A DNA stretch of 64,000 nucleotides from a virus, in IMG/VR virus record IMGVR_UViG_3300046167_000873, positions 32,001 to 96,000 of that record, one strand, 5' to 3'. Shown one piece after another: positions 19,023 through 49,349 of this stretch. The stretch's first letter is position 1. Every line of letters begins with the position of its first letter. Made by a program: the position numbers and the translations under genes. Below the pieces are notes generated by a model. It saw nothing but the letters and a program-made list of their open reading frames with translations. It was not told the DNA's origin and did no database searches.

Positions 19023-19628
19023 CTATCTTAATGCAATATCCTGCACTTTCGTTGCAATCCTTCCAAGCTTTTTGCCTGTAGTACCTGTGTCTCTATGATC
19101 AGCTAATTGCTCATCCCATACAGAATCAACAATTGCATCAATATCTGCCTGTGTAATCGCTACAGACGCTGCTTCAATCGTAATTAAATCTACGATGTTA
19201 GATCTTACAAGAGAAGTAGAAACACCTTCAGCAAATAAAAATGGGTTTTCTCCAGTTTCTCTTGTATATAAATTGCCGACTACTGTTAATGTATACGCGT
19301 CACCAGAAGCTGCTGGTTGAATTCTCCATCCGTTCTCTAAGAACAATGTAGTACCAACGTTTTGAACATCTGTAACTGGGTCTCCACCTAACACACTTAA
19401 AGCTTTAGGCCATGTCATTCCAGTGCCTTGTTCAGGTGACGCAAGTACCCATTCTTTCCAGGCTTCATAAATGTCTTCTTTAGCATTTATATCGGTGACG
19501 CCTGATGCAATATAAATTATTCTTGAGTAACCATCAAACGCAACTTTTTGATTACCAAACTGAAGCGTTGCCGCGTTCTCGTCTGTCCAGTTGTTAAACG
19601 TTTGATGGTAGTGAAGTCCCATTCCCAT
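19023..19628 (-). CDS. hypothetical structural protein
   Basis: IYEAWKEW...FLENGWRI motif shared with 22363 and 24486. Confidence 0.7.
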   Translation of the reverse strand: MGMGLHYHQTFNNWTDENAATLQFGNQKVAFDGYSRIIYIASGVTDINAKEDIYEAWKEWVLASPEQGTGMTWPKALSVLGGDPVTDVQNVGTTLFLENGWRIQPAASGDAYTLTVVGNLYTRETGENPFLFAEGVSTSLVRSNIVDLITIEAASVAITQADIDAIVDSVWDEQLADHRDTGTTGKKLGRIATKVQDIALR

Positions 19629-21724
19629 TATTGATTAATCTCAGACCATCCAAGATTGAAGTGTGCTGTTATATCTCCAATAGATGTATTCGATGTTTTA
19701 AAATCAATTGCTGGTTGCAATGGCTTAACTACTACAGTAAAGTAAATCTGATTACCATAGTCTCCACGCATACGACCGTTGCTTGTAATTGTTAACCCTT
19801 GAGTATTTACAGCAGTCGTAAACTCAATGTCTTCATAAAGTTCTGCTGTATTAATGCCAGTTACTTTAATATAAAAATCTTGACCGCCATTTTCGTCAAA
19901 GTTCAATACAGTACTAGCCGAACCAACTATGTCATAAAGTCGAATTGGATACCCTTCTCTGTGCCGCAACACAGCTGGCATACTATACGAGGTAGTTGTT
20001 CCGGTTGTCCAAGAAAATACTCCGTGATCTTCAGTACTACCATTCTCTGAATAGTTTTTAAATGCACCATCTTGGAAATTATTGAATGTTTGGTTTACAT
20101 CAACAAACCCTTTACTACGTACATACGTTGATAACATATGAGCGCCACCACCCCAAAACTTTGGGCGATCTGCAAGAACATAATTATTTGGCTTATACAC
20201 TTCTACGGCGTTATTAGGTAATTGACTTACTGGTACCATCCAAGGAGTGGAACCAGGATTTACCACAAACTCATCGCTGTTGATTGAATATGATGCGTCA
20301 CCACCCCCTAATACAGGATCTAAATAAACTTCAAACTCTACTAGTGCTTCTGAGCCGTCTTGATGATACGCCATAACTTCCATGTAGTTAGGCATATACA
20401 ATGTTCTATTAATGTTACCGCCGGAACCCGCCTCTAAAGTTTTGACTGGACTTAATACACCAATAAGTTCGTAATCCTGACCATTCTCTAACGATGTCGG
20501 ATCAAATGTTTTAGTAATAGTTTCTAGTCTATTACTTCCGATAGTATTAAGATCAATCTCATGCTCTGTTTGCACAGTTGCACACCAAGCAAATATTTTA
20601 GCATCATTTAAATTATTACCAGTATTTTTCATTGCAAAACAAATAGGCAATGAACCGGTTTGAGATGTAGGTTTACCGAAATTATCCGTACCTTCATGAT
20701 AATACTCGTGTATTACGATACGTTGTCCGCGGTGATATGTACCAAACCGAACTCGGCCTGCACCTAACCATTGGACATCAATCCAATAGATATTATCATC
20801 TTGAATCCTTAAATTCATTTGCGATAAACCTGTACCGTCGACAGGGTCGCCGTTGAATTCATCAGATTCAATTATTTTTTCTTGTACACTACCTGTTGCA
20901 GAAGACCTAATAACCAATTTTAATTTATTTGTATTATCGTTAACTCGGAACATATATCCGTTACTAAAGTCGAAATATCCCCAATTTCTAGTAACATTAG
21001 TTCCATAATCATCAGCAGTCAAAGCTACTGTCATCATTGCTGTCTGTGAGAATCCTGGAAAGTAGTGATGATATGTATTAGTAGTATGCGCCACTTGATC
21101 GAAGGATGAATCATTCTCAAAAGTAGTGCCAGGTGCACCTGAAGGGCAAGTCAATTCTAAAGCACGAAGATCACCCGAATGACCAATCGTTCCATTTCCT
21201 ACTCTAAGAGTGGAGAAATCATTTGGCAGTTGGTCATAAGCAAATACATATTCTCCTAAAGCGGTACCAGAAGATACTCTTAGTCTTCCAAATGCATCTA
21301 GTTGTGGGCGGCCTTCGTCAAACCGCATACTCATAGATCCAGTACTATCTACGTCTACTGTATTTTGTGGAGAATTTCCGCCACTGATATTCATATAAGG
21401 AACGTGAAGAATCTCATCACCTTGTATTGTAGCTACGATTGAGCCGTTATACCATAACTCATCCCCTAATACAAGACTTACATTGTTAAAATCTTGTCCA
21501 CTTGGGAATTTCATACCTACATAGCCGGAATCGCTATCTGGCCCTGTAAATATTACAACAGTAAATAATGGAGCGGACGCTCTATAGATTTGATAATCTT
21601 GTTGTAACTGCCAAATATGATTACCGACTCGAGCTGCGTATTGCACACGATGAAACGGCTCATGGCGAATCTTTTTGCCTGTGCTATCTATTGGTACCTG
21701 TACAAAACTTCTTTCGCCCGTCAT
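19628..21724 (-). CDS. large hypothetical virion-type protein
   Basis: 698-aa beta-rich ORF with DAFGRLRVS and QWLGAGRVRFG motifs. Confidence 0.7.
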   Translation of the reverse strand: MTGERSFVQVPIDSTGKKIRHEPFHRVQYAARVGNHIWQLQQDYQIYRASAPLFTVVIFTGPDSDSGYVGMKFPSGQDFNNVSLVLGDELWYNGSIVATIQGDEILHVPYMNISGGNSPQNTVDVDSTGSMSMRFDEGRPQLDAFGRLRVSSGTALGEYVFAYDQLPNDFSTLRVGNGTIGHSGDLRALELTCPSGAPGTTFENDSSFDQVAHTTNTYHHYFPGFSQTAMMTVALTADDYGTNVTRNWGYFDFSNGYMFRVNDNTNKLKLVIRSSATGSVQEKIIESDEFNGDPVDGTGLSQMNLRIQDDNIYWIDVQWLGAGRVRFGTYHRGQRIVIHEYYHEGTDNFGKPTSQTGSLPICFAMKNTGNNLNDAKIFAWCATVQTEHEIDLNTIGSNRLETITKTFDPTSLENGQDYELIGVLSPVKTLEAGSGGNINRTLYMPNYMEVMAYHQDGSEALVEFEVYLDPVLGGGDASYSINSDEFVVNPGSTPWMVPVSQLPNNAVEVYKPNNYVLADRPKFWGGGAHMLSTYVRSKGFVDVNQTFNNFQDGAFKNYSENGSTEDHGVFSWTTGTTTSYSMPAVLRHREGYPIRLYDIVGSASTVLNFDENGGQDFYIKVTGINTAELYEDIEFTTAVNTQGLTITSNGRMRGDYGNQIYFTVVVKPLQPAIDFKTSNTSIGDITAHFNLGWSEINQ

Positions 21725-21752
21725 CGGTGTTTTCCTTTAGAATTCGTTATCA

Positions 21753-22310
21753 TTATTTATCTTCGCCGAGAGTGAGTTTGGTTTGAACTGTGTTAATCTC
21801 GTCTCTGGCTTCTTCAGCAGTATTTGAAGATTGCAATTCTTTTAATTTTTGTATTTTTTGATCGACTAATGCTTGAGCATCTTCAAATTTCTGATCTGCT
21901 TTTCTTTTAAGAAGATGTGTTTCAATTCGATCTGTATCGGAATTTTTTCGTAAAGCCCATTCGTCTCTATAATTTTGCCAAGTCATAATACCGTCTAAAA
22001 ATTGAGCTTCAACTAATGCAATTACTGAAGTCTCTTGGTCACTCCATTCTTTATCTGCACCTATTTCTGAAACAATTTTCATTTGTGAACAAACGTTTTC
22101 AGCAACAGGCAAGTCTTTTACACAAGGAACAACTACAATTCCTTTTATAGGATGAATAACAATATCCCAATAACTACCAAAACTATGCCAGCCATAATTC
22201 TTTTCAATCATCATTGGTTCGATGATATCAATTATTTCTGGTATAAAAGGCTGTAGTCCTTTCTTTTTTCTATTGCAAGCATTTCTTACTTCATATCTTG
22301 TATAATTCAT
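21753..22310 (-). CDS. hypothetical protein
   Basis: ORF with GAGG RBS. Confidence 0.7.
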   Translation of the reverse strand: MNYTRYEVRNACNRKKKGLQPFIPEIIDIIEPMMIEKNYGWHSFGSYWDIVIHPIKGIVVVPCVKDLPVAENVCSQMKIVSEIGADKEWSDQETSVIALVEAQFLDGIMTWQNYRDEWALRKNSDTDRIETHLLKRKADQKFEDAQALVDQKIQKLKELQSSNTAEEARDEINTVQTKLTLGEDK

Positions 22311-22323
22311 ATGTCCTCACTAT

Positions 22324-22350
22324 AAAAACTGGGGGCCTATAAGACCCCCC
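22324..22350 (-). terminator. rho-independent terminator
   Basis: GGGGGTC-TTATA-GGCCCCC followed by agTTTTT on the minus strand. Confidence 0.75.
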
Positions 22351-22362
22351 TCTATACTATAC

Positions 22363-24429
22363 TTATGCAGGATTATCGTAGTTTCTTTCAAGTGGCGCAA
22401 TCAGTGTTATACTGTTTGAAATAGATCGCTGAATTGTTGCCTCAGCAGAAATATATTGAGCAGTATTTAATCCAATCGCTACAGCAGTAATTGGTGCATC
22501 TTCACCAGCTGATGCAGCACCTCGCTGTACGTTCTCATCATATGCATATGACTTCTGCAAAGTTAGAGCTACGATCGAACCAGCCATATCAACGTTAGAA
22601 GCGTCATCAACAATAATTGCAGATGCAGTACCATAATCTGCGCCAGCATTATCACCAGCATCATCGTTTGTAAAGAATACCCTGAAGATTGCATCAGTAT
22701 CATCTACAAGTGTCTGACTAAAGTTCAATGTCAGAATTGCCACAAACGGGAATGTCAAGTTAACGAACTGCGCAGGTGCTACAATCGAAGAACCATCAAC
22801 AGTACCAGATTCATCAGCACCAGTCTGTGCATATGTAAATGTTGTTGTGTTTGTCACAGTAACTTGGAAAGTTCCGTTAAACGAATCCGTCGTAGTGCCT
22901 GTTCCAGAGATTGTAATGTAGTCGTTACTGGTCAATCCATGCGTTCCAGACGTTACAACAGTTACAACGTTTGATGCTCTACTAATCGATGAGATAACAG
23001 CAGCGGCATTAACCTCAGAACCATAACCCCAGAAGTGTAACCTGTTCTGATCGGCTGTAGCAAAGTTGTTAATGTACACACCTTCGTAATCTTCAACTCC
23101 GGGTACATCTGGCTGACCAAGTGTGAATAGATCGTCTCCAACGAAGTTTAATTTCAGTGGAGTAATATCACCACGACGGACACCAGTAACACCAGTATTA
23201 TCATTGATATCAGTTGTCTTACGAAGTTGCGCTTGTATCCACTGATATATGATTTCAGCAGTAGGATTGGTTGTGTGTAATGAACCGGAGTCAGCATCAA
23301 TTTCAACCGTAAAGAATGCAGTTGGAACAGATGTTGGTGGGTTATTATTAAATCCTGTCTGCGAAGTAACATCACCAGAAGCAGCCCACGATATTGTCAT
23401 ATTGTTATAATATGTACCAGAGGCAACAGCAGGAGAAGTATTCTCAGTGGCGTTAGTAGCATTTAAATATGTAAATTCAGTTGCACTTGTTACAGTAATA
23501 GTTGCACCGCCAACACCAGTATTAAATCCGGTTTCAGTTGCACCTGAAATAGTAATCAAATCATTGCTTTCAAGTCCGTGTGCAGCTGAGGCTGTAACAG
23601 TAACAGTTGTACCGTTACCTGTAAGAGTATCGATTGCAATATCATCGCCTGCCGCTGCAGCTTCTGAGTCAGTTACTTTAACGTCAGTAGAGTTAACAAG
23701 CGGGAAACGATATGCTTGATATGTGGTACCAGCTTCAGCACCGATATCTGTTAGGTTAGCAGTATCATATGTTTTAGACCATGTTCGAAGGAATGCTTCA
23801 AAGAATAGACTATAGTTAAAACCATCAGCAGTTGAACCATCAGCGTTTGGATCGCTATAGAACTCAATCGCTTGGTTTGCAGCTCCAGTCAAAACGATAT
23901 CTACTGGTGCGCTTGTTGTGTCATTGATTTGACGATAGTAAATTTGGTCGTTAGAATCCAAACTACCCAACGAAATAAATGAGAACCAACGTTCCGTATC
24001 GTTAGTACCTGGACCAGCGTTAACCGCCCATCCACCTGTTCGAATAAGGTCTACCGTGTATGCACCACGTGAACCAGTATCTGCAACAGCAGCACCACCT
24101 TTAGCACCAGTATCGTCTACTTGGTCGAGGTTCCAACCGTTCGTAAACTCAAACTGCTCATCTGTAATAGGTGTCATTGGGAATGGGAATTTAATCAAAG
24201 TTGTATCATTCTTCCATCGTTCTTTGAGGAAAGAGTAAAGGCACTTTAGTGTTACACCAGAAACAGTCATACCGTTATTGCCTGGATCAACGGCCACATA
24301 GATCAACAAATTGGCTGTGTCAATATGAATCTCAGAAGCAGCTGCCCTAGAACCAGCACCGGTCGTATCGACGGTTGCTGCTAGATCATCTGGATCTGTA
24401 ATGACATCAGCGGCAATAAATTCTGCCAT
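22363..24429 (-). CDS. structural protein with two FCCH-like beta-barrel repeats
   Basis: Two VTV...HGL.SND.ITISG...FTY repeats; own late promoter and AAGGAG RBS. Confidence 0.75.
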   Translation of the reverse strand: MAEFIAADVITDPDDLAATVDTTGAGSRAAASEIHIDTANLLIYVAVDPGNNGMTVSGVTLKCLYSFLKERWKNDTTLIKFPFPMTPITDEQFEFTNGWNLDQVDDTGAKGGAAVADTGSRGAYTVDLIRTGGWAVNAGPGTNDTERWFSFISLGSLDSNDQIYYRQINDTTSAPVDIVLTGAANQAIEFYSDPNADGSTADGFNYSLFFEAFLRTWSKTYDTANLTDIGAEAGTTYQAYRFPLVNSTDVKVTDSEAAAAGDDIAIDTLTGNGTTVTVTASAAHGLESNDLITISGATETGFNTGVGGATITVTSATEFTYLNATNATENTSPAVASGTYYNNMTISWAASGDVTSQTGFNNNPPTSVPTAFFTVEIDADSGSLHTTNPTAEIIYQWIQAQLRKTTDINDNTGVTGVRRGDITPLKLNFVGDDLFTLGQPDVPGVEDYEGVYINNFATADQNRLHFWGYGSEVNAAAVISSISRASNVVTVVTSGTHGLTSNDYITISGTGTTTDSFNGTFQVTVTNTTTFTYAQTGADESGTVDGSSIVAPAQFVNLTFPFVAILTLNFSQTLVDDTDAIFRVFFTNDDAGDNAGADYGTASAIIVDDASNVDMAGSIVALTLQKSYAYDENVQRGAASAGEDAPITAVAIGLNTAQYISAEATIQRSISNSITLIAPLERNYDNPA

Positions 24430-24473
24430 CTTTATTCTCCTTTAAAGAGTTTTATTGTTATTATACTTCTGAA

Positions 24474-24481
24474 TATTTATA
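24474..24481 (-). promoter_or_regulatory. T4 late promoter
   Basis: TATAAATA. Confidence 0.8.
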
Positions 24482-24485
24482 CGTT

Positions 24486-27386
24486 TTAAGGATTAAGATA
24501 TTGTCTATCGATTACCTGAGCAATCGGTATAGACTGGTTAGTATTAGTCAAAGTCAAACCTTCAAGATATATGTTTTGAAAATTCAAATTCACAACCACT
24601 ACAATAATGTTAATATCAGCACTGTAAATATACTGATAAGCAAATGTACTATTATCGGTTGTACCTGTAATGGTGACACCAGCTGTTGCTCCTGTTCCAG
24701 AACCAGCAGTAATAGTTTCGACACCCGCAACATCTGAAGTGTCTGATGCATCATATATTCTTACTTCTGTTCCATCTTTCAGACCAGTCAATTCGAATGT
24801 AACTGTTAATGGTGGAAATCTTAATACGCCATTTGAATCGATTAGTTGAAAGTTTGTACTATCAGCGCCTGCCATGTTAGTAAGGAATACGCCCTGAGCA
24901 CCGAAGAATCTGCCACCAGCAAACGTACCGAAAGGCGCCTGTTTATTATCTACGTTACTAAAGTTTGCCTCATCAGCATTTCGATATTCATAACCATCAT
25001 CACCATTTACTGTTTGTGAAAAGTCAAATGATGTAATATATTTTAAATATTCATAAACTTCATCAAGTGGTCTACCATTACAATCGACTTCTGCAGCATA
25101 AGGTTGTAGTCCATTACCATCGCCAATATCTCTTGTTAATGAACCAAATGTGAGTGTAATATCAGTATACGTAGCGACAGTACCAGAAGCAGTTGTATTG
25201 TTTAAATCTTCGTTTGTTGAAAGTGCAACAATACTTTGACCGCCACCAGAAAGATCAGAGAAAAAGTGGTCATATAAATCACCATATTCTCTTGCAAATA
25301 ACCAAACAGCGCCATTAACATTTGTAGCAGTATCATCTGTTGACTGTATAAAAGTACCGTCTTGCACTTTGATTAAGATATCAACGTTACCATCTGGCCA
25401 CCAAGATGTCAGCGCAGCATCAGACGCTTCAACGCCTTGAACAACATAAATACCTGTACCTGTTTCTACGGTACCAATTGTTTTAACGTTTGACCACAAA
25501 AGATTATTAGCGGCGTCTGTAAATGATCCAGAGTATAAGAATTTGTAATCGTTGTCTTTTGCTCCAAACGTATAACCATTTAAAAAGTTGTATTGGACAT
25601 CTGTAATTGATTCAAGCGGAACCTCAAACTGCATAAAAGCGGTCGCAGCAAATGTATTCATTACAAATTCATATAAATTCTGCGACGTATCAATTGCGCT
25701 ATAAGCACTGAAAGGTAACGTAGGACCAGAAGTCATTGTAATAGTTTCTAATGATGTATTAATAGTCCAAGTATTATTTAACGTTGGTACTGCAATCTGC
25801 TGTCTGTCGTTAATAAGTGTAACTAGTTGTGATACTGATCCCGATGCAGTACCGAGAGTTGTTTCAAATGGTTTGTCACCAAATTTTCGTACTCGAAGTG
25901 TAGAGTTATTAGTTCCACTATAACTTTGTTGTGGAATATTACCACTAGCATCAGTAGTACCATTAAAGATCGTGGTAACACCGTCATTAATATAAACAAA
26001 GGCACCAGATACATTAACACCATCTTCGTCTTTTACGTTAACATCAATTGTTTTTGCTTGGACTTGTACGGTAATTTGTCCGGTGTAACTTGCACCTCGA
26101 CGAATACTTGGTGTTGTTATGCCAGCCGGAATTGTAATAACAATATCTTGAGCAGATGTTGCATTAATATATAATGTTTCGTTACCAGTAGATCCAGCAG
26201 TAAAGTCAGTTCCTTCAATACCAAGAGCGCCTGTAGCATAACCAGTCGCTGTGTGCGGAAAAGTATATGTCGCAGGAACAGTCGTTAGCTCAATTGCATG
26301 GTTTGATCCATCACTTACAAAAGTACACGTTCCAATTGCCGTGATATCACTTACAAGTAAACTTGTTGCGCCAATAGACTCGTTGAATGTACAAGTGTCA
26401 ATTGATGCACCACCTTGCGTTACCTGATCACACTGGTTAAACGATGTACTCCCTAAAGTAGAATTACTAAGGAATATGAATGTTCCCATTGCATTGAAGT
26501 TACAGCTTTCTAAATCAACAGTCGCATTATCAACTACTTCAAAATTACCTCTAGAAACAGTACTAATAGAAGAAAATGAAATAGATGTCCATTCAACGTT
26601 TGAAGCAGCGTTGTTTATTTCAATCTTATTGAAATTAGATGTGACAAATTCTGTATTGTCGATTGTAATACTTTTGTTTGAATCTCTAAAATCTACAGAA
26701 GTTGCCGTTACCCCAAAAGTAAGAAGACCTTTATAAAGATATGATCCTCCAGCATCTTGAAATAACCCCCATCTGCCTAACGTTGGGTTATCATTTTCTG
26801 TAGCAATACCATCGAAGTCTGCGTATCCGTTTGCAAGATCGCCATCGGTAATAATAACTTCACCTCGGCCGTAACGCATGATATCGATGTTGAAAGAGTT
26901 ACCTTTTGAAATGCCGACACTTAGATCAACACCAATCCCAGCTGTATTATACGTCGTATTAGGCGAACCGGTGGTAGCTGACTCGGTTGTTGTTGGGTTT
27001 ACTGCATAATTTACCCAACCGCCATATGGATACGTATCTCGGCCATTTACATAGTATTGTCTAAAATTTGCACTGGTGTTACCAATAAAAACCTGTATTC
27101 CACCGAGTGATTTATTAATAGTTGCGTTAGGAGCAAACCATTTAAACCATATGAAAAAAGCACCATCAGTTGGAATTGTCCGACTTGTACCGGATGTGAA
27201 GACTAGAGAACCCTTACCATCTTTACGTTGTGATTCTGTAATACAACGATCACCATAAATCGCCAAGTCAGTATCAACCACGCCGGCGCCGTCTGTTCGG
27301 GTAAATCCGGTTGCCTCAGCAAATCCCGTAGTTGACGTCGCGTCGGTGTGAATTGATAAGTCTGTCGTATAGCTTGCAGCTGCCAT
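24486..27386 (-). CDS. large multi-domain structural protein (beta-helix-like and Ig-like segments)
   Basis: 966 aa, Thr/Gly/Asn-rich; VKDEDG..VSGA.V...GTTDASG Ig-like segment. Confidence 0.7.
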   Translation of the reverse strand: MAAASYTTDLSIHTDATSTTGFAEATGFTRTDGAGVVDTDLAIYGDRCITESQRKDGKGSLVFTSGTSRTIPTDGAFFIWFKWFAPNATINKSLGGIQVFIGNTSANFRQYYVNGRDTYPYGGWVNYAVNPTTTESATTGSPNTTYNTAGIGVDLSVGISKGNSFNIDIMRYGRGEVIITDGDLANGYADFDGIATENDNPTLGRWGLFQDAGGSYLYKGLLTFGVTATSVDFRDSNKSITIDNTEFVTSNFNKIEINNAASNVEWTSISFSSISTVSRGNFEVVDNATVDLESCNFNAMGTFIFLSNSTLGSTSFNQCDQVTQGGASIDTCTFNESIGATSLLVSDITAIGTCTFVSDGSNHAIELTTVPATYTFPHTATGYATGALGIEGTDFTAGSTGNETLYINATSAQDIVITIPAGITTPSIRRGASYTGQITVQVQAKTIDVNVKDEDGVNVSGAFVYINDGVTTIFNGTTDASGNIPQQSYSGTNNSTLRVRKFGDKPFETTLGTASGSVSQLVTLINDRQQIAVPTLNNTWTINTSLETITMTSGPTLPFSAYSAIDTSQNLYEFVMNTFAATAFMQFEVPLESITDVQYNFLNGYTFGAKDNDYKFLYSGSFTDAANNLLWSNVKTIGTVETGTGIYVVQGVEASDAALTSWWPDGNVDILIKVQDGTFIQSTDDTATNVNGAVWLFAREYGDLYDHFFSDLSGGGQSIVALSTNEDLNNTTASGTVATYTDITLTFGSLTRDIGDGNGLQPYAAEVDCNGRPLDEVYEYLKYITSFDFSQTVNGDDGYEYRNADEANFSNVDNKQAPFGTFAGGRFFGAQGVFLTNMAGADSTNFQLIDSNGVLRFPPLTVTFELTGLKDGTEVRIYDASDTSDVAGVETITAGSGTGATAGVTITGTTDNSTFAYQYIYSADINIIVVVVNLNFQNIYLEGLTLTNTNQSIPIAQVIDRQYLNP

Positions 27387-39054: not shown

Positions 39055-39666
39055 TTAGATATTATAGGGATCGGCAAAGTTCATAGCTATATTCAACCTT
39101 TCTTCTTCACTTTTATTGGTTTCAACGCTATGTGATAACCACGCAGGAAATACAATCAATTCGTATTCTTTAGGCACATACACCATTGAACTTTTAAATT
39201 GATTATGAAGGTAAGGCGTTTCCATATAATTAGGAAGCATCGAATGTACACCAAACGAAAAGTTTTCGTGGCGACTAAACCTAATTCCACCTTGATCTGG
39301 TTTTTGTTTTAAATAATATACCGCAGCAAGAACTGCACCAGGGTGAGTATGGTCACAATTGTAATCGCCGTTCATATTCGAATTAAACCAGCCATAAGAC
39401 ATCATAAGATTCTCATTCATGAGAAAATATCTACGGCACAATTCGTTAATGTGTTTTTCTGCAACTTGGTACATATTATCAAGTGCAGGATTTATTTTTC
39501 TATCCGCACCTCTTTGCCAACCGCCTACATTAGAACGAATGATACCATCAGGATCTTCTTTACGAACTTGTTTGCAATGTTCAATGATAGCAAGGTTATC
39601 AACCTCTTCTGATAAATCAAAAGTATGAATTGCATCGTGCCATAGTTCGATTTTATTGCCTGACAT
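39055..39666 (-). CDS. 2OG-Fe(II) oxygenase-like protein (TIGR02466-type)
   Basis: SNVGGWQ, W.N...N..HTHP...AVYY, L.VFP.WL.H.V, R.NIA.N. Confidence 0.85.
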   Translation of the reverse strand: MSGNKIELWHDAIHTFDLSEEVDNLAIIEHCKQVRKEDPDGIIRSNVGGWQRGADRKINPALDNMYQVAEKHINELCRRYFLMNENLMMSYGWFNSNMNGDYNCDHTHPGAVLAAVYYLKQKPDQGGIRFSRHENFSFGVHSMLPNYMETPYLHNQFKSSMVYVPKEYELIVFPAWLSHSVETNKSEEERLNIAMNFADPYNI

Positions 39667-40318
39667 ATCTATGCCCTAATACTAAGTCAGTAGGAGCAAA
39701 TGGCACACTTAAACTAATTCGATCAGTTAATGATTCGATACAATGGTATTGTTTATACGGAATATACAGACAATCACCAGGATGCAACTCGTCTTCTATT
39801 AAGATGTTTTGTGACAAATCAAAGTCCCGCTTCATATTAAATTCTTCTGGGTGTATACTTAACTCTTCTGTGTGTATAAAATGACCTGCTTTATTGCCAT
39901 ATACTATAACTTTACTTACACCATCTAATTGAAATATGAGGTTAGTACAATTATCAAAATGTGGTGCAAAACCACCACCCTGAGCCTTAGAAATATATAG
40001 GTGACTACCTACAATTGGCTGTTCATCTTGTGCAGAAAAAATATCTCTAATCAATTCAATTAATTGATATGATTGGGAGTCTTTGATATCAATTTCCCAA
40101 TTAGTAATTACGAGCGAATGATTTTCTTCGTCAAAAGCTTTTCGTGCTTCTTCTCCAAATAGTCTATTTGATGACTGCATACCTGGATGTAATTTATCTA
40201 TCGCATCCATAACAACTGAAGGATCTATGTGCATATTATGCATTTTTCTAATAATTGCAGGATGATCGTTATACTCCATTTCAGCTCTTAATGCATATAA
40301 AAAAGAAGTTTCAATCAT
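39653..40318 (-). CDS. JmjC-domain oxygenase (YcfD/RoxA/NO66-like)
   Basis: LYIS...GF.PHFD....IFQL.G.SK...L.PGDCLYIP...YH. Confidence 0.85.
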   Translation of the reverse strand: MIETSFLYALRAEMEYNDHPAIIRKMHNMHIDPSVVMDAIDKLHPGMQSSNRLFGEEARKAFDEENHSLVITNWEIDIKDSQSYQLIELIRDIFSAQDEQPIVGSHLYISKAQGGGFAPHFDNCTNLIFQLDGVSKVIVYGNKAGHFIHTEELSIHPEEFNMKRDFDLSQNILIEDELHPGDCLYIPYKQYHCIESLTDRISLSVPFAPTDLVLGHRYVRQ

Positions 40319-41058
40319 AATATTGTGTGCTCATTTTTACTTGGTCGCATAAACATTTTTCGATACCATTGTTTAGCTGTAGATGGTGTACTTCTTTCTT
40401 TGTGAAGATCAATTTTATCAGCAATTCTACATGTAGATGTTATATTACCTTTTTGTAAAGGTATTATATGAAATAACGGTGTTCCAGCTTTAATCATAAA
40501 CCGCCCTTTTACAATAGGTGCAGCAATCATATTCATAGTATTAAATCCTTTGCTAGTATCAATAATGCCAGGATAGATATGAATCTTTCTTGCAATGTTG
40601 CCGTGATAATATGCTGGCATTAATGCAAATGAAAGATCAGTTGACTCAACCGCCCAGGGTGTTGTAAAATGCATTGCTTTTGGTCTTATGAGTTCAGAAT
40701 ATATAGGTAGCCTTGCAGGTATATCTGGGGATAATCCGTTACCTGCTGCTACAATTGGACAATGTTTTTTTAACGCTTCGTCTACAGGTGTAGACCTCTG
40801 ATTAACAGGGTCTGGATCACCATAATAAACCATGGTGCTTTTATCTGATGCGAATACATGTATATCCGTCCATGCTGGCATTATCCAACCGGTGTCTCTA
40901 TAGTCGGCCATTCCTGGACAAACAGTAAAACTGTCTTTTCCGTCTTTTTCTTTTTGAACATTTGATATGTTTTCAGTTTTTGAAGCAAGAGTAATAGGAT
41001 ACCAATGGATAACACCCATGTCTGATTTATCAATAAACTGAACATTAAAATCTGTCAT
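40315..41058 (-). CDS. conserved phage hypothetical protein within the oxygenase operon
   Basis: CPGM.DY..TGW.MP.W.D...PW...PGIID...I.AGTPL..IIP pattern. Confidence 0.7.
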   Translation of the reverse strand: MTDFNVQFIDKSDMGVIHWYPITLASKTENISNVQKEKDGKDSFTVCPGMADYRDTGWIMPAWTDIHVFASDKSTMVYYGDPDPVNQRSTPVDEALKKHCPIVAAGNGLSPDIPARLPIYSELIRPKAMHFTTPWAVESTDLSFALMPAYYHGNIARKIHIYPGIIDTSKGFNTMNMIAAPIVKGRFMIKAGTPLFHIIPLQKGNITSTCRIADKIDLHKERSTPSTAKQWYRKMFMRPSKNEHTIL

Positions 41059-41666
41059 TGTATTTGCCCTTTACCACGCACCCAAAAAACAAGAGTTTTT
41101 CTTATACCCTCACTGACAGGAGTAACACAATGGTGCATTGACGAATCAAATAAAATAACATCACCTTTATTCAAGGTAATATCTGTTGCCCTATTTTGAT
41201 CACCACCCGAAAGATCGATTTTAAGATCACCACCTTTATAGTCACTAGGATCTGATAACATCAAAACGCCTGATATCATACGATCCATTGGAACATAACC
41301 ATGCAAAGAACTATCACGATGCCAACCGTAATATGCATCATCTGAACCGTGGTATATAGTATATTGAAGATTTTCTATATGATCGATATTATACAAGAAT
41401 AAGTCGTAATTAGCTTGACTTACAATGCTAGCAAGTTTTTCAAAAATGAAACCGGTGTTTTCATCTATTGGAAGCCACCCGGTTTTTGTGATGCGTGTGT
41501 TAGGGTCTACTGAGCCTTCTTGCCCATCACCAACCTTAGCATCATCGAATTCTATAATCTTTTCGAAAAAAGTAATTCTATCAATTTCTTCTGCGTCGAA
41601 AGCGCCTTGAATCGTACCGTGCCGCTGCAACGGTACAGTAGGCAAAAGTTTTTGCACTGGGAACAT
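41055..41666 (-). CDS. 2OG-Fe(II) oxygenase (PKHD/prolyl-hydroxylase-like)
   Basis: YGWHRD (HxD), Y.GGDL, GD..LF.S..HH.V.PV..G.RK.LV.W. Confidence 0.92.
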   Translation of the reverse strand: MFPVQKLLPTVPLQRHGTIQGAFDAEEIDRITFFEKIIEFDDAKVGDGQEGSVDPNTRITKTGWLPIDENTGFIFEKLASIVSQANYDLFLYNIDHIENLQYTIYHGSDDAYYGWHRDSSLHGYVPMDRMISGVLMLSDPSDYKGGDLKIDLSGGDQNRATDITLNKGDVILFDSSMHHCVTPVSEGIRKTLVFWVRGKGQIQ

Positions 41667-41709: not shown

Positions 41710-43653
41710 CTATGTGTACTTTATATTTATAAACCCACCAGAGCCGACTGTTGCAGTTGCCTGTTTAGTTGCAGTACTTCCAGTTGATGGAATACCTCTT
41801 GGATCCCAAACAGTTGTTTGAGATGATGGGCCTGTTATAGGACCAAATCCACTTGCATTGGCGCCGGGTGCAGTAATAACCCCTGCGGTTCCTAAATTAA
41901 CGGTAGTTGGTGTTCCAGGTTGCCCTGATGTAAATCCTGACGAAAAGCTGTATGGTTGTACTGTAAACGCAGGAGTTACATTAAATCCACTTGTTGGCTT
42001 TTGACCAGTAACTCCATAAGAATAAGGCTGATTATAAGAATATTGCTGAGGCTTTTGCCCAGTTGTAGCAAACGTGTAAGGTTGTGTATAAGAATACGGC
42101 TGTGGCTTTGATCCAGTTGTAGCAAACGAATATGGCTGTACCAGAAAACCACTTGCAGGTTTTTGACCAGTTGTTGCAAATGGATACGGCGTTAATCTAA
42201 AGACACTTGTTACAGGTTTTGTTCCAGTCGTACCATACGAATATGGTTGCGAAAAGAATACACTTGTTACAGGTTTTGTTCCAGTTGTTGCAAACGAATA
42301 TGGTTGCACTCTAGTACCGCTTACTGGTTTAGTACCACCAGCTTGAAACGGATACGGTTGATTATATGAATATTGTACTTGCTTAGTACCGCCTGCTTGA
42401 AACGGATAAGGCTGTGAAAAGTATCCAGAAGCAGGAAAAGTACCAACAGCTTGAAAAGGATATGGCGCAATCCGAAAACCAGCGTTTGGTGTTTGCCCTT
42501 GAGTTGGTGTAATACCAGCAGCGGTATAATTATATGGCTGTTGATTGTCAACTGGCTTTTGGCCAGTCAAGACTCTCCATCCAGATCTTGCTGTTCCATA
42601 TGGGAATGGCTTCGCTCCCCACTTACTACCTTGAGCCGTATATGTATAAGGCGACGATGATGGTTGATTTGGGCCAGAGGGGTTTCCCTGCAGCGAGGCA
42701 CACTGCGGGATTGGTCTTCGGTTCGTTGAAAAAACACCGTCGGCGTTGATTGTGCATTGAGTTTGCGCAGTCCTTACTTTGAAACCACTTCCTGGGACCG
42801 GATATTGATATTTGTACGAAGTAAAACTAAAAGTACTGAAATCCGTATAAGAATATGGCTGACCATAAGGATAGGATGAAAATGTTGTAAATGGCTTTTG
42901 GCCAGTAGTTTGATACGCATAACCTACATTATATGGATATGGTGATTGAAAACCATAAGATTGCGGTGTAGAACCGAATGTACCGTATGTATAAAACCCA
43001 GTATATGAATATAAAGCCTGTTTAGAGCCGGTTGTTGCAAATGAATATGGCTGCGAACTGAATACACCAGTAACTGGCTTTGTTCCAGTCGTACCATATG
43101 TATATGGTTGATTGTAACCATATGGTTGTTGCTTAGTACCACCTGCCTGAAAAGGATATGGTTGATTATATGAATATTGTACTTGTTTAGTACCAGGCGC
43201 CTGAAAAGGATATGGTTGATTATATGAATATTGCTGTGGTGTTTGCCCTTGAGTAGTATATGGATATGGTGCTTGAAAACCATAAGGTTGTTGCTTAGTA
43301 CCACCTGCTTGAAACGGATAAGGCGTTAACCTAAAAACTCCAGTTACAGGTTTTGTACCAGGTGCTTGAAAAGGATATGGAGTTAACCTAAAAACATTAG
43401 TTACAGGTTTAGTACCACTGACAGTAAATGGATAAGGTGATTGATAACCGTATGGCTGATTATAAGAATACGGTTGTTGTTTAGTACCAGATGAATAGGT
43501 ATTAAAACCGCCAGTAGAAGATCCTCCTTGCAAAGAAACTTCTAATAATTTTCTTCCATAGGGTAAAGATATTTGACCAGGAGTTGTGCGGGTTACATCA
43601 AATGTATCAGCCCATGTCCTATTTAAAAAACCCTTTCCACCGCCAGCTGGCAT
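41710..43653 (-). CDS. Tyr/Pro/Gln/Thr-rich repeat protein; probable fibre/adhesin with mirror-complementary arms
   Basis: About 20 units of 18-19 aa in two arms around a two-Cys central segment; lies after the tail fibre genes. Confidence 0.8.
   Translation of the reverse strand: MPAGGGKGFLNRTWADTFDVTRTTPGQISLPYGRKLLEVSLQGGSSTGGFNTYSSGTKQQPYSYNQPYGYQSPYPFTVSGTKPVTNVFRLTPYPFQAPGTKPVTGVFRLTPYPFQAGGTKQQPYGFQAPYPYTTQGQTPQQYSYNQPYPFQAPGTKQVQYSYNQPYPFQAGGTKQQPYGYNQPYTYGTTGTKPVTGVFSSQPYSFATTGSKQALYSYTGFYTYGTFGSTPQSYGFQSPYPYNVGYAYQTTGQKPFTTFSSYPYGQPYSYTDFSTFSFTSYKYQYPVPGSGFKVRTAQTQCTINADGVFSTNRRPIPQCASLQGNPSGPNQPSSSPYTYTAQGSKWGAKPFPYGTARSGWRVLTGQKPVDNQQPYNYTAAGITPTQGQTPNAGFRIAPYPFQAVGTFPASGYFSQPYPFQAGGTKQVQYSYNQPYPFQAGGTKPVSGTRVQPYSFATTGTKPVTSVFFSQPYSYGTTGTKPVTSVFRLTPYPFATTGQKPASGFLVQPYSFATTGSKPQPYSYTQPYTFATTGQKPQQYSYNQPYSYGVTGQKPTSGFNVTPAFTVQPYSFSSGFTSGQPGTPTTVNLGTAGVITAPGANASGFGPITGPSSQTTVWDPRGIPSTGSTATKQATATVGSGGFINIKYT
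41724..41731 (-). promoter_or_regulatory. T4 late promoter for the oxygenase operon, inside the 3' end of the repeat gene
   Basis: TATAAATA about 60 nt upstream of the ATG at 41666; a TGnTATAAT extended -10 also lies at 41690-41698. Confidence 0.65.
41935..43479 (-). repeat. 54/57-bp coding tandem repeats in two arrays (42895-43479 and 41935-42489)
   Basis: Units end in GTK/GQK/GSK; exact 35-bp copies at 43145 and 43199. Confidence 0.9.
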
Positions 43654-43662
43654 ACTTACTCC

Positions 43663-45007
43663 TTATTGTGCAAATCCAGCATTACGGAAACTCAAGCTAC
43701 CGTATATCTGTCCACTTATATTTATAAAGCTATATATGTCTATTCCAGAACTAGGAGGTGGTTCAATACCATCTGACCAAAAAACTTTATCTGCTTCACC
43801 TGATCCTGGCCACGTGCAAGATCTAGCAGTTCCATTATTGTTAATGACTAATGTAAACGTTGTAGATCCGCCGGCTGCGGTTGCAGCATAATTAGAAAAG
43901 TCAATCGAGTATGAAGCGGTTGGTGTAAATGTGTGTACTGACCCACTATTAACATCAAGTGTGTACGCAGTACCAGAACCGCCTGCAACAACCTTTTCTT
44001 GAAAACAATCATTAGCTGTAATTCTTGCTGCATTAACACCATTGTTATTAACTTCAATTCTTTCTGTTCCACCAGTTACAACTCTAAATTGATCTGCTGC
44101 ATGAAATTGCGCGTAAGTATTAGTATCACCAATGTGAACAATAGCATTACCAAGATTAACATTAGCTGTTGCTGTAACATTAGGAGCAGTAATGAGACCA
44201 GAGCCTGATACAGTAATATTAGAAGTCGTTGCTAAAGTAGACGTAAGAGTTAATCCTCGGCCTGTAATATCACCAGAAGTATTAACATCAAATACTTGTG
44301 ACATTGTAACGTCACCGTCAATTGCAACTGTAGCCGCTGCACCTGAAAAATAACGTAAACCAGATGAGTCAAGAATAAGTGCTTGTTTATTGAAATCTGA
44401 GTTACCAGCTGAAGAAACAAATGCGTCGGCAACACCTGATTTTGGCCTAACTGCATATCCAAGTGCAATACCACCTGATGATGCCATTGATCCAACAGTC
44501 GCTATTTTATTAGCACCAGTATAATTGCCTGCTAGCATTAATGCGCCAGAGGTTGATGTTGCATCACCTGCGGTAATTACACCTGAGGATGATCCAGTCG
44601 CAACAGTAATATCAGTATTAAATGTTGTTGTTGACGTAGATTCATCAATGAACATTACATTTACATTGGAACTAGGTGTCACCAAGATTAATAATAAAAT
44701 CTTTAGATGTACCGTTATCTGTAATAGTAACTCCGCTAGGAGTAAAACCAAACTTTGCACGATCATTAGACAAAAAGCTTGATGTGCCGCTAGTGGTATT
44801 ACCATCATCAATTCTAATTACAGATTGAGCAGAAGTTGCAGCAGTAACATCAAGTGCGTACGCAGGATTTGATCTGTTAATACCAACCCTATCGGTAGAA
44901 GAATTGACAAATAAAGTGTCTGTATCAACTGCTACGTTTCCACCAACATCTAAGCCGCCAGTGATTTTTAAACCATCAAGCGCATCGAATTTTTGTGAAG
45001 TTGCCAT
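43663..45007 (-). CDS. tail fibre protein, frameshifted near 44675 (track ORFs 44672..45007 and 43663..44811)
   Basis: VDTDTLFV....DRVGIN...P..ALDV, then H.GDTNT...F...D.F..VTGG.ER and a C-terminal WP..V.W..G..P....ID.Y.F fibre domain. Confidence 0.8.
43719..43726 (-). promoter_or_regulatory. T4 late promoter for the repeat-protein gene
   Basis: TATAAATA about 65 nt upstream of the ATG at 43653. Confidence 0.65.
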
Positions 45008-45019
45008 ATCTCTCTCTTG

Positions 45020-45436
45020 TTATAACTTAAAGATTCCAGAAGAACTCCATATGATGTCGACATTGCTGCCGTCTGGAGTAATTGGTAAACCATTAATATT
45101 TGTATCCATCCATGCAACTAATCTTGATGTGTTAGCATCAGCAGTATCAATCCATAATAATAGAGCTTCTGCATCAATCGATGTATTTGCTACGTCAGTA
45201 AATAAAACATCATCAGCATCTAAAACACCGTTTATACACGTAACATTTGTTAAATCAGCAGTTTCTAAAATACCTAAATCTGTATTTGATAAATCAGAAT
45301 AAAATTCATCAGTAGATCTAAATTCTGTTGTACCAGAATCTACGAGCGTAACTTTTACGCTTCCTGCAGTAAGAGAACTATCGGTAGCGCTTGTTAATAC
45401 AGCTTCTTTGTATTTATCATATATTACGTTTGCCAT
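45020..45436 (-). CDS. conserved phage tail-associated protein
   Basis: MAN..Y...KE..L...GVLDADD..F...LP.TP.G....I.W...GIFKL. Confidence 0.7.
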   Translation of the reverse strand: MANVIYDKYKEAVLTSATDSSLTAGSVKVTLVDSGTTEFRSTDEFYSDLSNTDLGILETADLTNVTCINGVLDADDVLFTDVANTSIDAEALLLWIDTADANTSRLVAWMDTNINGLPITPDGSNVDIIWSSSGIFKL

Positions 45437-45437
45437 A

Positions 45438-48400
45438 TTATACTCTCGTCTCTATCTTCAGGACCTTAAATCGGTGAACATCCGTAACTGATGCAGCGGA
45501 ACAAGTTGCTTGTAAATCAATATGCGTTGTGTTAGCAGCAAGAACAGGTACAATACTAACTGTGCCTATATTCGAATCAACTTCACCGTATCGTGTATAG
45601 TATATATCTTTGTTATCAGTCACGATAATATTAACTTCTACAGCATAACCAGAATCCGCATCGTTAAGGTTTTCGCCGTGAACAAAATACTTAAATCCTT
45701 GTGTTTGACCAACTTCGAAGCTATCAATTACTGTAGCAGCAGTCGTTGTAACATCACCACCTGTACCTGTAAATGCAACACCATTTGCTTCAAGAGATGA
45801 TACCTCAAGATTTAAGATGACTGCTGTATTAGATACAAATAAGTTTTCAAATATAGTATTACCAGAGAGTGTCAATCCATCAGGTAAAGATGCACTATCA
45901 TCAACAACAAGATTATCTACTGTCAGCGTATTTGTACTTGGGTTGAATGTAAAGGTAGTGTCACCTCTAGCATCTTGATAACCAGATGTTGCTCCAGCAA
46001 AAACGACTGGTTGGTTAGCGTTAGTCGTTGAGGTATGCATCTGAATAGTATTTGATTGAGCAGCAGTACCTGAAATATTAGAGCTAATTTCAGCAGGCAA
46101 TCGAGCATCGTTAACTGTTCCAGTTGTAAGAGCAGTTGCATTTAGATTCGTTAGAGATGCACCATTACCTGTGAACGTAGTTGCACCAACATCACCAGTA
46201 ACTGTAATACCAGTAGATATTGTTTCTAGTTTAGTAGTTCCGTAATGACTTAACAATACAGAACCAGTACTACCATCAGCTCTAACATAATCTGTTACAC
46301 CGCCAGTAGAATCGTCTGACTGTATTGCAACATCTTGATCATTGCCAAACTGTCGAATCAATAAACTGCTTTGTAAAGCATCGATGTTGTTGCCGGTTCC
46401 AGAAGCTTTTATCGATAGATCAACTGTAGTACCAAACGTTAATATTTGACCATCATCAAATCGCAATGCGTCTGCTGATTTGTCCCACTCAACATTCCCA
46501 AGAGTACCTAAAATCGTAATATCGTTTTCAAACTGTGATGTACTAGAAACAAGTAACGTATCAGTATCTGTTTCGCCAGTTACATTAATACCGGTTGCAG
46601 TAGTTTCTATTTTAATATTACCTGCGTGAGTAACTTCAACTGCGCCAGCTGCAACACCTCGAATATAATTAGTTCCTGCAGTATCTTCAAGTACGATGTT
46701 GTTACCTTGGAGAACTAATGATCCAGAACCGCTTTCAGTTATAACACTAGCAGAACCGTCGTTATACAACTGCATCGTTGTGCCGAGTTGTATAATTTCA
46801 TTATCGCCAACAGTAACGCCATCAGCAACGAGTGTTCCTGTGACTGTAGCACCTGTTGCAGATGTTTCGAATTTAACATTTCCTGCATGAGTTACAGCAA
46901 CTGAAGCTCCCGCTGTACCTAAGATATAATCATTACCTGCAGTATCTTCTAAGACAAGATTGTTAGCTTGAAGACGAAGGCTACCAGGACCATTTTCTTT
47001 GATGATTGAATCGCCAGCTACTTCATGGAAGATTTGTAAATCATTTGAAGTTCCGAATGTGGCTTTTATGTCATCATTAAAGTTTAGTAGATCTTCTGAT
47101 GAATCCCAATGTAATGCATCAACAGTAGTACCATCGAAGAATGCATCATCTTCAAACAACGCAGTTGATCGTACTCTTAATGTATTTGTATTGGCATCAT
47201 TTACAATCTGAAGACCAGCATCGTTGATAGTCATTTCAACTGTGTTGGCATTCGGTGAATAGTATTCAACCCGATCACCATCAATTGCTGAAATATATCG
47301 AGTGTCATCGGATGCAGTCAACAGTAGATTAGTTGATCTAACAATTAAGCTACCAGTACCTTGCTCATCAACGTAAGAAGCAGAACCGGTGTGGTAGATT
47401 CTTAAATCTTCATCAGTACCAAATGCTGCATAAACATCATCTTCAAAACTTAGTGTATTATTTGAAGATTCCCAAACAAGGCTATCTGCATCTAGTCCAG
47501 CTGATCCATCAAAGTAAGCATCTTCTTGAACTCGTAAAGTAACAGTATTTGCTTCACCGTATACTTCGATACCAGCAGTGTTTGTTTGTAGCTTAGATAT
47601 ATTGTTGTGGTAAAGAGTAACTTCACCTGATGTATTAGCAACGATTAAACTAGTTGTTCCTGTATCGTCAGTGACTCTGAAGTTGTCCTCAACGCGCATG
47701 AATAAATCGTTGGTGGTTTCTGTTACAAAACTATCTGTTCCATCAGTGACGATTGTGAAGTTGTGAGCCGCAGCATAATCTGCTCCACCCATTTCAATAG
47801 GTTGGTTATTGTATGTAACAATACCACCATTTGCAACCAACTCACCAGTGACTTCAACACCATGTGTATTTGTTTGTAGCCGTTCAACACCTTCGTAGTA
47901 AAGACGTACCGTACTATTATCTGCTACATTAGCAGTCATATACAGTTCTGAACCAGATTCTGATTTAATTTCTACAGTATCAGTAATAACATTAAGATCA
48001 GTTCTTGCCCGAATGTCTTGGTTGTCGGTATTAGAATATGCTCTACCAGCTGCTGTATAGAACATCTCCCAGTCATCGCTATCACCGAATGTGGCTTTGA
48101 CTGAATCACGATAATTCCATACTTCGCTTGTTGCATCCCAATGAACACTGTTTGAGTTTAAAGTATCATTGTCAAAGTTTGCATCTTGACGTACGCGCAG
48201 TGTAGTTGTATTTGCTTCGCCAAAGACTTCAACACCAGGTACTTCGCCTGCTTGAGTGCCAGTCGTTTCGAGACGTGCATCGCCGTTGTTATAAAGAACA
48301 ACTTCGCTTGATCCGTCGTTATTAGCAGTAATAAAATTTGTTGTACCTGGTTCGTCAGTAAGATTAAAACCTTCATGAACAAAGATATTTAAATCTCTAT

Positions 48401-49349
48401 CGCCAGATATAATAATACCGTCTGTGCCGTCAGTGTAAAGTTGGAAATTGTATGTTGCTATATCCTCACCACCATTATAGGGGTATGTGCCACCCATAAG
48501 GATTTTATTATTATCAAAGATAACAGCATCATCTTGTATAATGGTGTCACCATGTACAACTACACCATATGTATTAGTTGACAGTCGTACATCACCTTCG
48601 TAGTAAAGCTTAACAGTACTATTATCAGCAACATCGGCAGTAATATAAAGTTCTGCACCTGTCTCTGATTTAACTTCTATATTGTCAGTAATAAAATTAG
48701 TATCTGTTACAGCTCGAATATCTAAGTTATCTGTATTAGCATACATTCTACCAGTATCGTAGAACATTTCAAGTTGTCCAGTACCACCAAATATTTCCGT
48801 GCCAGTTGCACCACCAAATGTAGCGCGCACGTTATCATTAAAGTTTAGTTGGTTATTGGAACTTTGCCAATGCATTTGAGGGTTTGTATTTGTTCCTGCA
48901 GGACCATCGCCTACAAACAAGACATCGTATCGTGCCTCAATGTTATTCTCTACGATCAATCCGTATGTTGAATCAACATAAACTTCTACAGTTTCGTCTG
49001 TAAACGTTGTGTTAGTTGTTACATAAAGCGTATCAGATACAAAATCATTAGAAGAAAAATCAAAAGTACCACCACGCAATCCACCATACAAACCATTTGC
49101 ATAAGCGTTTATTGAAGGATCACGACCATCGTTAAACACAACAACTGCGTTAGCTGCAAACTGACCAAAAAGTGTCGCATTACCATAAGTTAAAGAACCG
49201 CCTGGAAGACCGTTCGCAGTCATCATAGAGGTCTGAGCACCAGTAGTATCACCGCGGGTAATCAGTATAAGCTCGTTTGTTTTGTTTAACCAATCGCTAA
49301 ATGTCTGCGTGCTTGGTTGTATCTCGTTAAATCCGGAGAGAAGTGCCAT
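45438..49349 (-). CDS. long fibre protein with ~8 internal repeats
   Basis: N-terminal TF.DWL.KTNE; repeated V.LY....KL.T...G..V.G modules. Confidence 0.8.
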   Translation of the reverse strand: MALLSGFNEIQPSTQTFSDWLNKTNELILITRGDTTGAQTSMMTANGLPGGSLTYGNATLFGQFAANAVVVFNDGRDPSINAYANGLYGGLRGGTFDFSSNDFVSDTLYVTTNTTFTDETVEVYVDSTYGLIVENNIEARYDVLFVGDGPAGTNTNPQMHWQSSNNQLNFNDNVRATFGGATGTEIFGGTGQLEMFYDTGRMYANTDNLDIRAVTDTNFITDNIEVKSETGAELYITADVADNSTVKLYYEGDVRLSTNTYGVVVHGDTIIQDDAVIFDNNKILMGGTYPYNGGEDIATYNFQLYTDGTDGIIISGDRDLNIFVHEGFNLTDEPGTTNFITANNDGSSEVVLYNNGDARLETTGTQAGEVPGVEVFGEANTTTLRVRQDANFDNDTLNSNSVHWDATSEVWNYRDSVKATFGDSDDWEMFYTAAGRAYSNTDNQDIRARTDLNVITDTVEIKSESGSELYMTANVADNSTVRLYYEGVERLQTNTHGVEVTGELVANGGIVTYNNQPIEMGGADYAAAHNFTIVTDGTDSFVTETTNDLFMRVEDNFRVTDDTGTTSLIVANTSGEVTLYHNNISKLQTNTAGIEVYGEANTVTLRVQEDAYFDGSAGLDADSLVWESSNNTLSFEDDVYAAFGTDEDLRIYHTGSASYVDEQGTGSLIVRSTNLLLTASDDTRYISAIDGDRVEYYSPNANTVEMTINDAGLQIVNDANTNTLRVRSTALFEDDAFFDGTTVDALHWDSSEDLLNFNDDIKATFGTSNDLQIFHEVAGDSIIKENGPGSLRLQANNLVLEDTAGNDYILGTAGASVAVTHAGNVKFETSATGATVTGTLVADGVTVGDNEIIQLGTTMQLYNDGSASVITESGSGSLVLQGNNIVLEDTAGTNYIRGVAAGAVEVTHAGNIKIETTATGINVTGETDTDTLLVSSTSQFENDITILGTLGNVEWDKSADALRFDDGQILTFGTTVDLSIKASGTGNNIDALQSSLLIRQFGNDQDVAIQSDDSTGGVTDYVRADGSTGSVLLSHYGTTKLETISTGITVTGDVGATTFTGNGASLTNLNATALTTGTVNDARLPAEISSNISGTAAQSNTIQMHTSTTNANQPVVFAGATSGYQDARGDTTFTFNPSTNTLTVDNLVVDDSASLPDGLTLSGNTIFENLFVSNTAVILNLEVSSLEANGVAFTGTGGDVTTTAATVIDSFEVGQTQGFKYFVHGENLNDADSGYAVEVNIIVTDNKDIYYTRYGEVDSNIGTVSIVPVLAANTTHIDLQATCSAASVTDVHRFKVLKIETRV

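Follow-up and report, generated by a model that had tools for sequence, protein, structure and literature searches.

Repeat order suggesting a self-pairing, fold-back stalk in a fibre-block protein of an uncultured marine T4-like phage

Introduction

Known tandem-repeat folds, to our knowledge, rest on contacts between neighbouring repeats or on parallel oligomers. A gene in the tail-fibre block of an uncultured marine phage raises the question of whether a repeat protein can also be held together by units that lie far apart in the chain. A preliminary description of this DNA had noticed that the two arms of the predicted protein read as opposite unit types in reverse order, and had proposed that one chain folds into a very long antiparallel stalk with a tip domain made from its two ends. 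Here we ask how far the mirrored order holds within the protein and across its relatives, which parts of the chain might serve as base and tip, and whether such a design has precedents.

The locus

The window, that is, the whole 64,000-nucleotide stretch that we analysed, comes from a 150,920-bp record of an uncultured marine phage whose gene order is T4-like. The capsid protein of this T4-like phage is 60–64% identical to those of T4-like phages of several different hosts, and DNA near-identical to the window is present in seawater and estuary metagenomes, with no RNA data set among the holders listed. The fold-back gene lies between VrlC-like genes and neck genes, inside the tail-fibre block; three genes of that block immediately precede it, and four oxygenase-type genes follow. 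In pelagimyophages the region between the VrlC-like and neck genes has been named the host-recognition cluster (PMC7029224). The 647-aa product had no match in Pfam, PHROG or PDB by sequence or profile search, and a clear homologue was found in no cultured phage. The features discussed below are:

45020-49349, minus strand: 138-aa phrog_644 gene and 1303-aa fibre-like structural gene, a conserved upstream block
43663-45007, minus strand: upstream fibre-like gene, 447 aa after discounting a one-base assembly error; directly upstream in every homologous locus with flanking sequence
43719-43726, minus strand: match to the consensus of T4-type late promoters, TATAAATA, lying 66 nt ahead of the start
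41710-43653, minus strand: whole gene of the fold-back repeat protein, 647 aa; open reading frame with an AAGGAG ribosome site at 43659-43664
43483-43653, minus strand: N-terminal half of the split end domain, aa 1-57, with jelly-roll strands predicted by the model; the family's most conserved part
42898-43482, minus strand: outgoing arm, aa 58-252, ten units, from the unit parse and mirror statistics
42493-42897, minus strand: turn region, aa 253-387, where less strict mirror segments flank a small knob with cysteines (about aa 289-330); the most variable part and proposed distal tip
41956-42492, minus strand: returning arm, aa 388-566, ten units that, taken in reverse, complement those of the outgoing arm, from the mirror statistics
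41713-41955, minus strand: predicted C-terminal half of the split end domain, aa 567-647, from the model and family conservation
41724-41731, minus strand: match to the T4-type late promoter consensus within the last codons of the fold-back gene
39055-41666, minus strand: four downstream genes with annotation matches to a 2OG-Fe(II) oxygenase, phrog_7084, JmjC and a 2OG-Fe(II) oxygenase

Gene order around the fold-back gene is fixed in homologous loci, and the first downstream 2OG-Fe(II) oxygenase adjoins it in all nine loci with flanking sequence. The late promoter consensus upstream of the start occurs in only one of nine homologous loci with flanking sequence. The one at the gene end was present in 10/10 homologous loci, within the last codons in nine and just past the stop codon in the remaining one; some of the conservation of the C-terminal motif is thus a constraint on the DNA, which encodes this promoter. 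Its position means that the downstream oxygenases would be late genes, and it is possible that they modify the Pro/Tyr-rich fibre. Given the location between VrlC-like and neck genes, the fixed gene order and the late promoter, we infer that the 647-aa protein is a late, virion-associated fibre or adhesin of the host-recognition block, with a putative role in receptor binding. Gene order likewise makes the product of the upstream fibre-like gene a candidate attachment partner for the end domain.

Several other observations concern the neighbourhood. The upstream fibre-like gene appears frameshifted in the window near 44676-44680; because all four sequencing runs lack one base there, we rejected a genuine frameshift and attribute it to an assembly error. 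In all homologous loci with flanking sequence, the fold-back gene is followed by a 2OG-Fe(II) oxygenase, phrog_7084 as a single or double copy, JmjC and another oxygenase. In L008, L010, L011, L013 and L015, the oxygenase genes are interrupted, downstream of the first, by a block of small genes; one gene of this block has an EF-hand-like motif, and another, lipoprotein-like, is one that we take to be spanin-like. The L015 genome has two further proteins ending in the C-terminal domain of the upstream fibre (L026:3918-7133), one of them with a long Ile/Ser/Thr pentapeptide-like repeat, and neither is then followed by a fold-back gene. Elsewhere in the window (19628-27386), three large genes of 698, 688 and 966 aa lie between the portal and head genes, and one of them matches a virion structural family.

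Pairing within the protein

The repeat units are 18-19 aa long and parse cleanly. By the type of their first halves, the units of the N arm (aa 58-252) read Y,V,V,Y,Y,Y,Y,V,Y,Y, and those of the C arm (aa 388-578) read backwards are V,Y,Y,V,V,V,V,Y,V,V. The preliminary description had put opposite types at all ten positions, at odds of 1 in 120; we obtained the same 10/10 in the antiparallel register, with a permutation p of 0.0084. Shifting the register by one to three units lowered the proportion to between 3/8 and 5/9. The parallel register still gave 8/10 opposite types from composition alone, so the binary count is by itself only modest. The reported alternation of the second halves was also reproduced, with opposite types at 8/9 positions (p=0.048) and one pair breaking the rule. 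Each of the three partner-specific rules that had been proposed (PQQYSYNQ facing PVTxVFRLT, QVQYSYNQ facing PVTxVFxSQ, and YGFQ units facing xxGF units) holds in 2/2 cases.

We also used a class-free test, which asks whether similar segments have similar partners without recourse to hand-made classes. For the first halves, the correlation was r=0.77 in the antiparallel register, a value reached by 0/5000 permutations, compared to 0.28 in the parallel register and values near 0 in shifted ones. For the second halves it was r=0.47 (1/5000 permutations). Paired first halves share i+j = 625-626, and for paired units the sum of start and end is 633-636 throughout. The symmetry axis thus falls at about aa 313, close to C300 and C318, the only cysteines of the protein, as had been noted before. 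Across the first halves of this protein and two relatives introduced below, L004 and L006, the partner signal is confined to the antiparallel register, with parallel r values of 0.02–0.28. The repeats therefore lack the parallel register of a solenoid or triple beta-spiral, where packing is between successive repeats or between equivalent repeats of different chains.

No long inverted repeat in the DNA accounts for the mirrored order, and both arms are encoded on one strand. In a contig from an independent estuary run, the two arms are covered gaplessly, with 72 substitutions, which rules out assembly as the origin of the unit order. Among the substitutions listed for this estuary strain, a cluster lies near the turn (window 42524-42580), with four amino-acid changes in aa 363-377.

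Pairing in relatives

Searches with the whole protein gave almost nothing, and homologues were reached only through the two terminal, end-domain halves. The resulting family has about 20 sequences, with full-length members of 461-973 aa. L002 (669 aa) uses the same alphabet as the 647-aa protein and has 10/10 opposite types (r=0.91). Its types at positions 6, 7, 8 and 10 differ from those of the 647-aa protein, and all four partners in the other arm are flipped too. Read on its own, the L002 unit order happens to be a direct repeat too, and only the comparison with the 647-aa protein makes it evidence of compensation.

Relatives with other alphabets show the same logic. L004 (973 aa) is built on a 15-aa unit. 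Its first halves use four or more letters, which form two-by-two pairs across 21 positions, and its class-free correlations are 0.79 and 0.50 (0/3000). In its second halves an aromatic residue faces a non-aromatic one at 18/18 positions (4/200000), and there is no Asp-Asp pair. In L006 (782 aa), pairing holds at 17/18 (84/200000) and 19/19 positions (55/200000), the one exception being a first-half pair.

Changes in length are mirrored as well. L010 and L011 differ by +32 aa in each arm, at residues 115 and 415, positions that sum to the register. Segment borders in L011, L015 and L010 hold a single i+j over 150-190 residues, and in these three and P0018 segments of unequal length face partners of matching length, which keeps i+j constant over as many as 190 residues. 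Of 13 further homologues, 11 did better than token shuffles in a gapless mirror test (0-6 of 300), several of them being close relatives of one another. L006 and L012 failed, which reflects the drift of their unit lengths. Module pairs occur in both orientations, and half-units are common to both arms at up to 96% DNA identity.

The short forms P0015, P0023 and L003 break at exact 32–42-nt repeats, and we therefore took them to be probable assembly collapses and gave them no weight as evidence. In L003, four units (74 aa) are absent from the C arm only and the break lies inside a 40-nt exact repeat, so that a collapsed assembly is likely, if not proven. Two other short sequences may be mentioned: P0025 (267 aa) joins the family end domain to a brief insert of another alphabet, and P0013, a 69-aa fragment in which the family's N-terminal half runs into a collagen-like Gly-Pro stretch, may be frameshifted or represent another stalk type.

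The earlier description had suggested looking in homologues for changes in one arm that are mirrored in the other. The four flips in L002 and the paired 32-aa difference between L010 and L011 are such changes, and they support the antiparallel pairing of the arms by a modular code, as first proposed. Because the mirror code is kept while relatives change the order, number and alphabet of their units, the chain most likely folds back on itself. From these sequence comparisons we are highly confident that the arms pair antiparallel.

The ends and the turn of the chain

AlphaFold run on the single 647-aa sequence gave a pLDDT of 34, rising to 50–66 at aa 271-320. No AlphaFold model folded the stalk (pLDDT <35), and cross-strand contacts were not seen; the hairpin is accordingly deduced from the sequence. 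With a 21-row alignment on the short relative P0023, both termini came together in one all-beta domain (pLDDT 57-76). This relative is itself a probable product of assembly collapse at a 32-nt repeat, and the resulting shortening of the insert may help the ends to meet in the model. Residues 9-251 of this model align to jelly-roll beta-sandwiches at Z 6-7 over 80-100 residues (best Z 6.8-7.0, 85-98 residues; rmsd about 3 Å), a level that is common among beta-sandwiches and names a fold class, not a family. Weaker matches include several TNF-like trimeric jelly-rolls (Z 4.5-5.4). Among the VIA matches listed, where jelly-rolls including TNF-like chains score Z 5–7, gp38, gp24 and ALK structures do not appear, which has no bearing on membership. 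Foldseek gave no match at E<=0.001.

With moderate confidence, then, the termini are predicted to form a single split jelly-roll domain. Since both ends would be needed to complete it, the chain would have to return to its start, in agreement with the mirror code. Together, the P0023 model and the mirror statistics describe a split base domain with an out-and-back insert. The suggestion that the termini are two halves of one Gly-rich domain stands only in part: the P0023 model does place them in one domain, but its Gly-rich character did not find support. The end domain has no profile match to PF21722, hhalign gave Pam3 gp24 a probability of 0.1%, and the lattice of several glycine-rich motifs is absent, there being no polyglycine runs beyond GG/GGG. 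BFVD gave a weak Gly-rich-domain lead and Atlas one of 0.82, where all matches were below 0.9 and discordant between the two queries.

Conservation points to the polarity of the stalk. In the comparison with L002, identity is 81% and 80% in the two end halves, 43–49% in the arms and 35% in the turn. Most pairs of relatives show the same dip toward the middle (L008/P0016 is an exception), and subfamilies have entirely different turns. Only the protein's own subgroup has the cysteines at the axis; the idea of conserved cysteines for the whole family was rejected, as four other homologues have none. The end domain, being the most conserved part, is probably the base, and the turn, the most variable, probably the distal tip. 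The original placement of the end domain at the fibre tip is thus probably wrong. T4 gp37 (PMC6957217) and Pam3 gp24 (PMC9608196) are arranged likewise: their conserved domain lies proximally, and it is the variable far end that contacts the host.

Discussion

Our preferred reading, to which we give a probability of roughly 0.6, is a single-chain ribbon with a base and a tip, docked by its base on the upstream fibre protein. The chain would start in the small jelly-roll domain, run out for about 195 residues, turn at the variable knob and return alongside itself, its last 80 residues completing the starting domain. The stalk would be a long antiparallel two-stranded ribbon, about 60 nm at 3.3 Å per residue, although the 12% Pro and frequent Gly of the 647-aa protein are unusual for a regular beta ribbon. 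Half-unit modules would each fit only certain cross-strand partners (aromatic against small or aliphatic, Asp modules against Arg modules, with lengths matched), which would favour one register. The end domain would probably dock on the upstream fibre protein, and the turn would be the distal, host-facing end. A module pair may work in either orientation, as the pairs found both ways round suggest; together with the near-identical half-units common to both arms, this would let recombination shuffle modules between arms while selection retains only rearrangements that are mirrored in both.

Sequence complementarity alone is compatible with more than one architecture. Most phage fibres are trimers, and three fold-back chains might intertwine into a six-stranded needle like that of T4 gp37, with the code read within and between chains and the jelly-roll as a trimeric collar. 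This would fit all of the mirror statistics equally well; it would also suit the weak TNF-like matches of the end domain, and by itself a two-stranded ribbon of 60 nm may be floppy. Pam3 gp24 (PMC9608196) and gp37 (PMC6957217) are themselves trimeric. We nevertheless consider such a needle less likely than the single-chain ribbon, as the 647-aa protein has neither His nor an HxH metal motif, no trimerising helix or C-terminal chaperone domain was seen, and the free flipping of module pairs would be simplest with the local two-fold of a two-stranded ribbon. Complementarity is equally blind to whether pairing is intra- or intermolecular, so two extended chains could lie head to tail, the N arm of one against the C arm of the other, in a double-length rod with a swapped end domain at each end. 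The centre of the protein argues against this, since it is a non-repetitive, partly folded knob rather than a self-complementary continuation. Closure of a hairpin is local and therefore kinetically favoured, and we regard the head-to-tail dimer as very improbable.

The arms could also pair as we propose with the polarity reversed, the end domain being a receptor-binding tip and the turn an anchor, or they could be polyproline-II-like rather than beta strands. Jelly-roll domains often bind receptors, the Gly-rich leads from Atlas and BFVD hint in that direction, and Pro makes up 12-16% of residues in the protein's own subgroup. We think either variant improbable: ends that are about 80% identical to those of L002 beside a turn at 35%, and a turn that is wholly different between subfamilies, are hard to square with a conserved anchor, and L004 follows the same pairing logic with only 5% Pro. 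In Pam3 gp24, too, the beta-sandwich is proximal and the loops are distal and variable (PMC9608196). That the mirrored order reflects no pairing at all, arising instead by chance, from assembly or as a by-product of DNA duplication or inversion, can draw on the binary count in the 647-aa protein alone (p=0.008, with 8/10 in the parallel register), on the direct repeat in L002 and on the way repeats mislead assemblers, as in L003, P0015 and P0023. It is largely refuted by the class-free tests, the mirrored indel and the gapless mirror test, and we give it hardly any credence. Independent proteins in three alphabets give p values of 1e-3 to 1e-5 each, in the antiparallel register only; the arms share a strand without a long inverted repeat, the independent strain covers the gene gaplessly, and no duplication process makes a different partner unit in reverse order.

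We lean, somewhat more than evenly, toward seeing in the single-chain ribbon one member of a class of repeat proteins whose repeats do not pair with their neighbours but, in nested order, with complementary repeats far along the chain. Such a protein would be a stem-loop with a pairing alphabet that can be read and transferred, and marine T4-like phages would use it to make single-chain stalks of adjustable length that present a variable receptor-binding knob tens of nanometres beyond the end of the fibre. A reverse-complement code lies in the order of the repeats itself; it is legible from the sequence, and it evolves through mirrored changes, much as an RNA stem does. If structure bears the code out, this would be a new way of building a protein fibre. 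It would offer natural orthogonal peptide pairs for protein design, pose for molecular evolution the question of how two distant arms gain or swap modules together, and point to an unrecognised component of host recognition in abundant marine phages, one missed by family libraries and AlphaFold alike.

Relation to known systems

Intramolecular fold-back over long distances is familiar from SMC/Rad50 proteins, whose antiparallel coiled coils bring the N and C termini into one domain and extend about 50 nm. The likeness lies in the long fold-back and the single domain formed by the termini; the difference is that those arms are helical heptads without discrete, exchangeable partner modules. As an analogy only, the bovine ultralong CDR H3 has a beta-sandwich base, a two-stranded stalk and a variable, Cys-containing far knob (PMC10523490). 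It is unrelated, with at most 70 residues in all and no repeats or code (PMC10523490).

Among phage adhesins, Pam3 gp24 (PMC9608196), the Straboviridae gp38 adhesin, which is monomeric (PMC12032242), and PF21722 resemble the fold-back protein in the small beta-sandwich with distal projections that is predicted for it and in a gene that follows a fibre gene. The Gly-rich adhesins also share a Gly-Gly motif at the exit from the first strands. The fold-back protein differs from them in lacking a polyglycine lattice and in carrying one enormous insert in place of several short loops.

The closest topological precedent is the tip of the T4 long tail fibre protein gp37, in which the collar D10 (residues 811-881 and 1010-1026) carries the inserted needle D11 (PMC6957217). 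As predicted for the fold-back protein, gp37 has a two-piece domain with an out-and-back extension between its pieces, and both proteins are encoded in a tail-fibre gene block. The far end of the gp37 extension binds receptors (PMC6957217), as the turn of the fold-back protein is proposed to do. Sequence and profile searches (PDB, Pfam, PHROG) showed no homology to the gp37 collar or needle, and iron-binding His motifs are missing: the 647-aa protein has 0 His, and none of the six members checked has an HxH. The gp37 insert has about 130 residues, is trimeric and holds seven iron ions (PMC6957217), whereas the fold-back insert, four to six times as long at about 510 residues and up to about 830 in relatives, has no His and is built, unlike gp37, from interchangeable modules with a pairing code. 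Our literature search, which was short on subscription papers, found no description of such an amino-acid pairing code. The view that no described phage appendage is built this way needs qualifying. The out-and-back topology alone is not new, as the gp37 collar and needle have it (PMC6957217); the modular code and the scale are.
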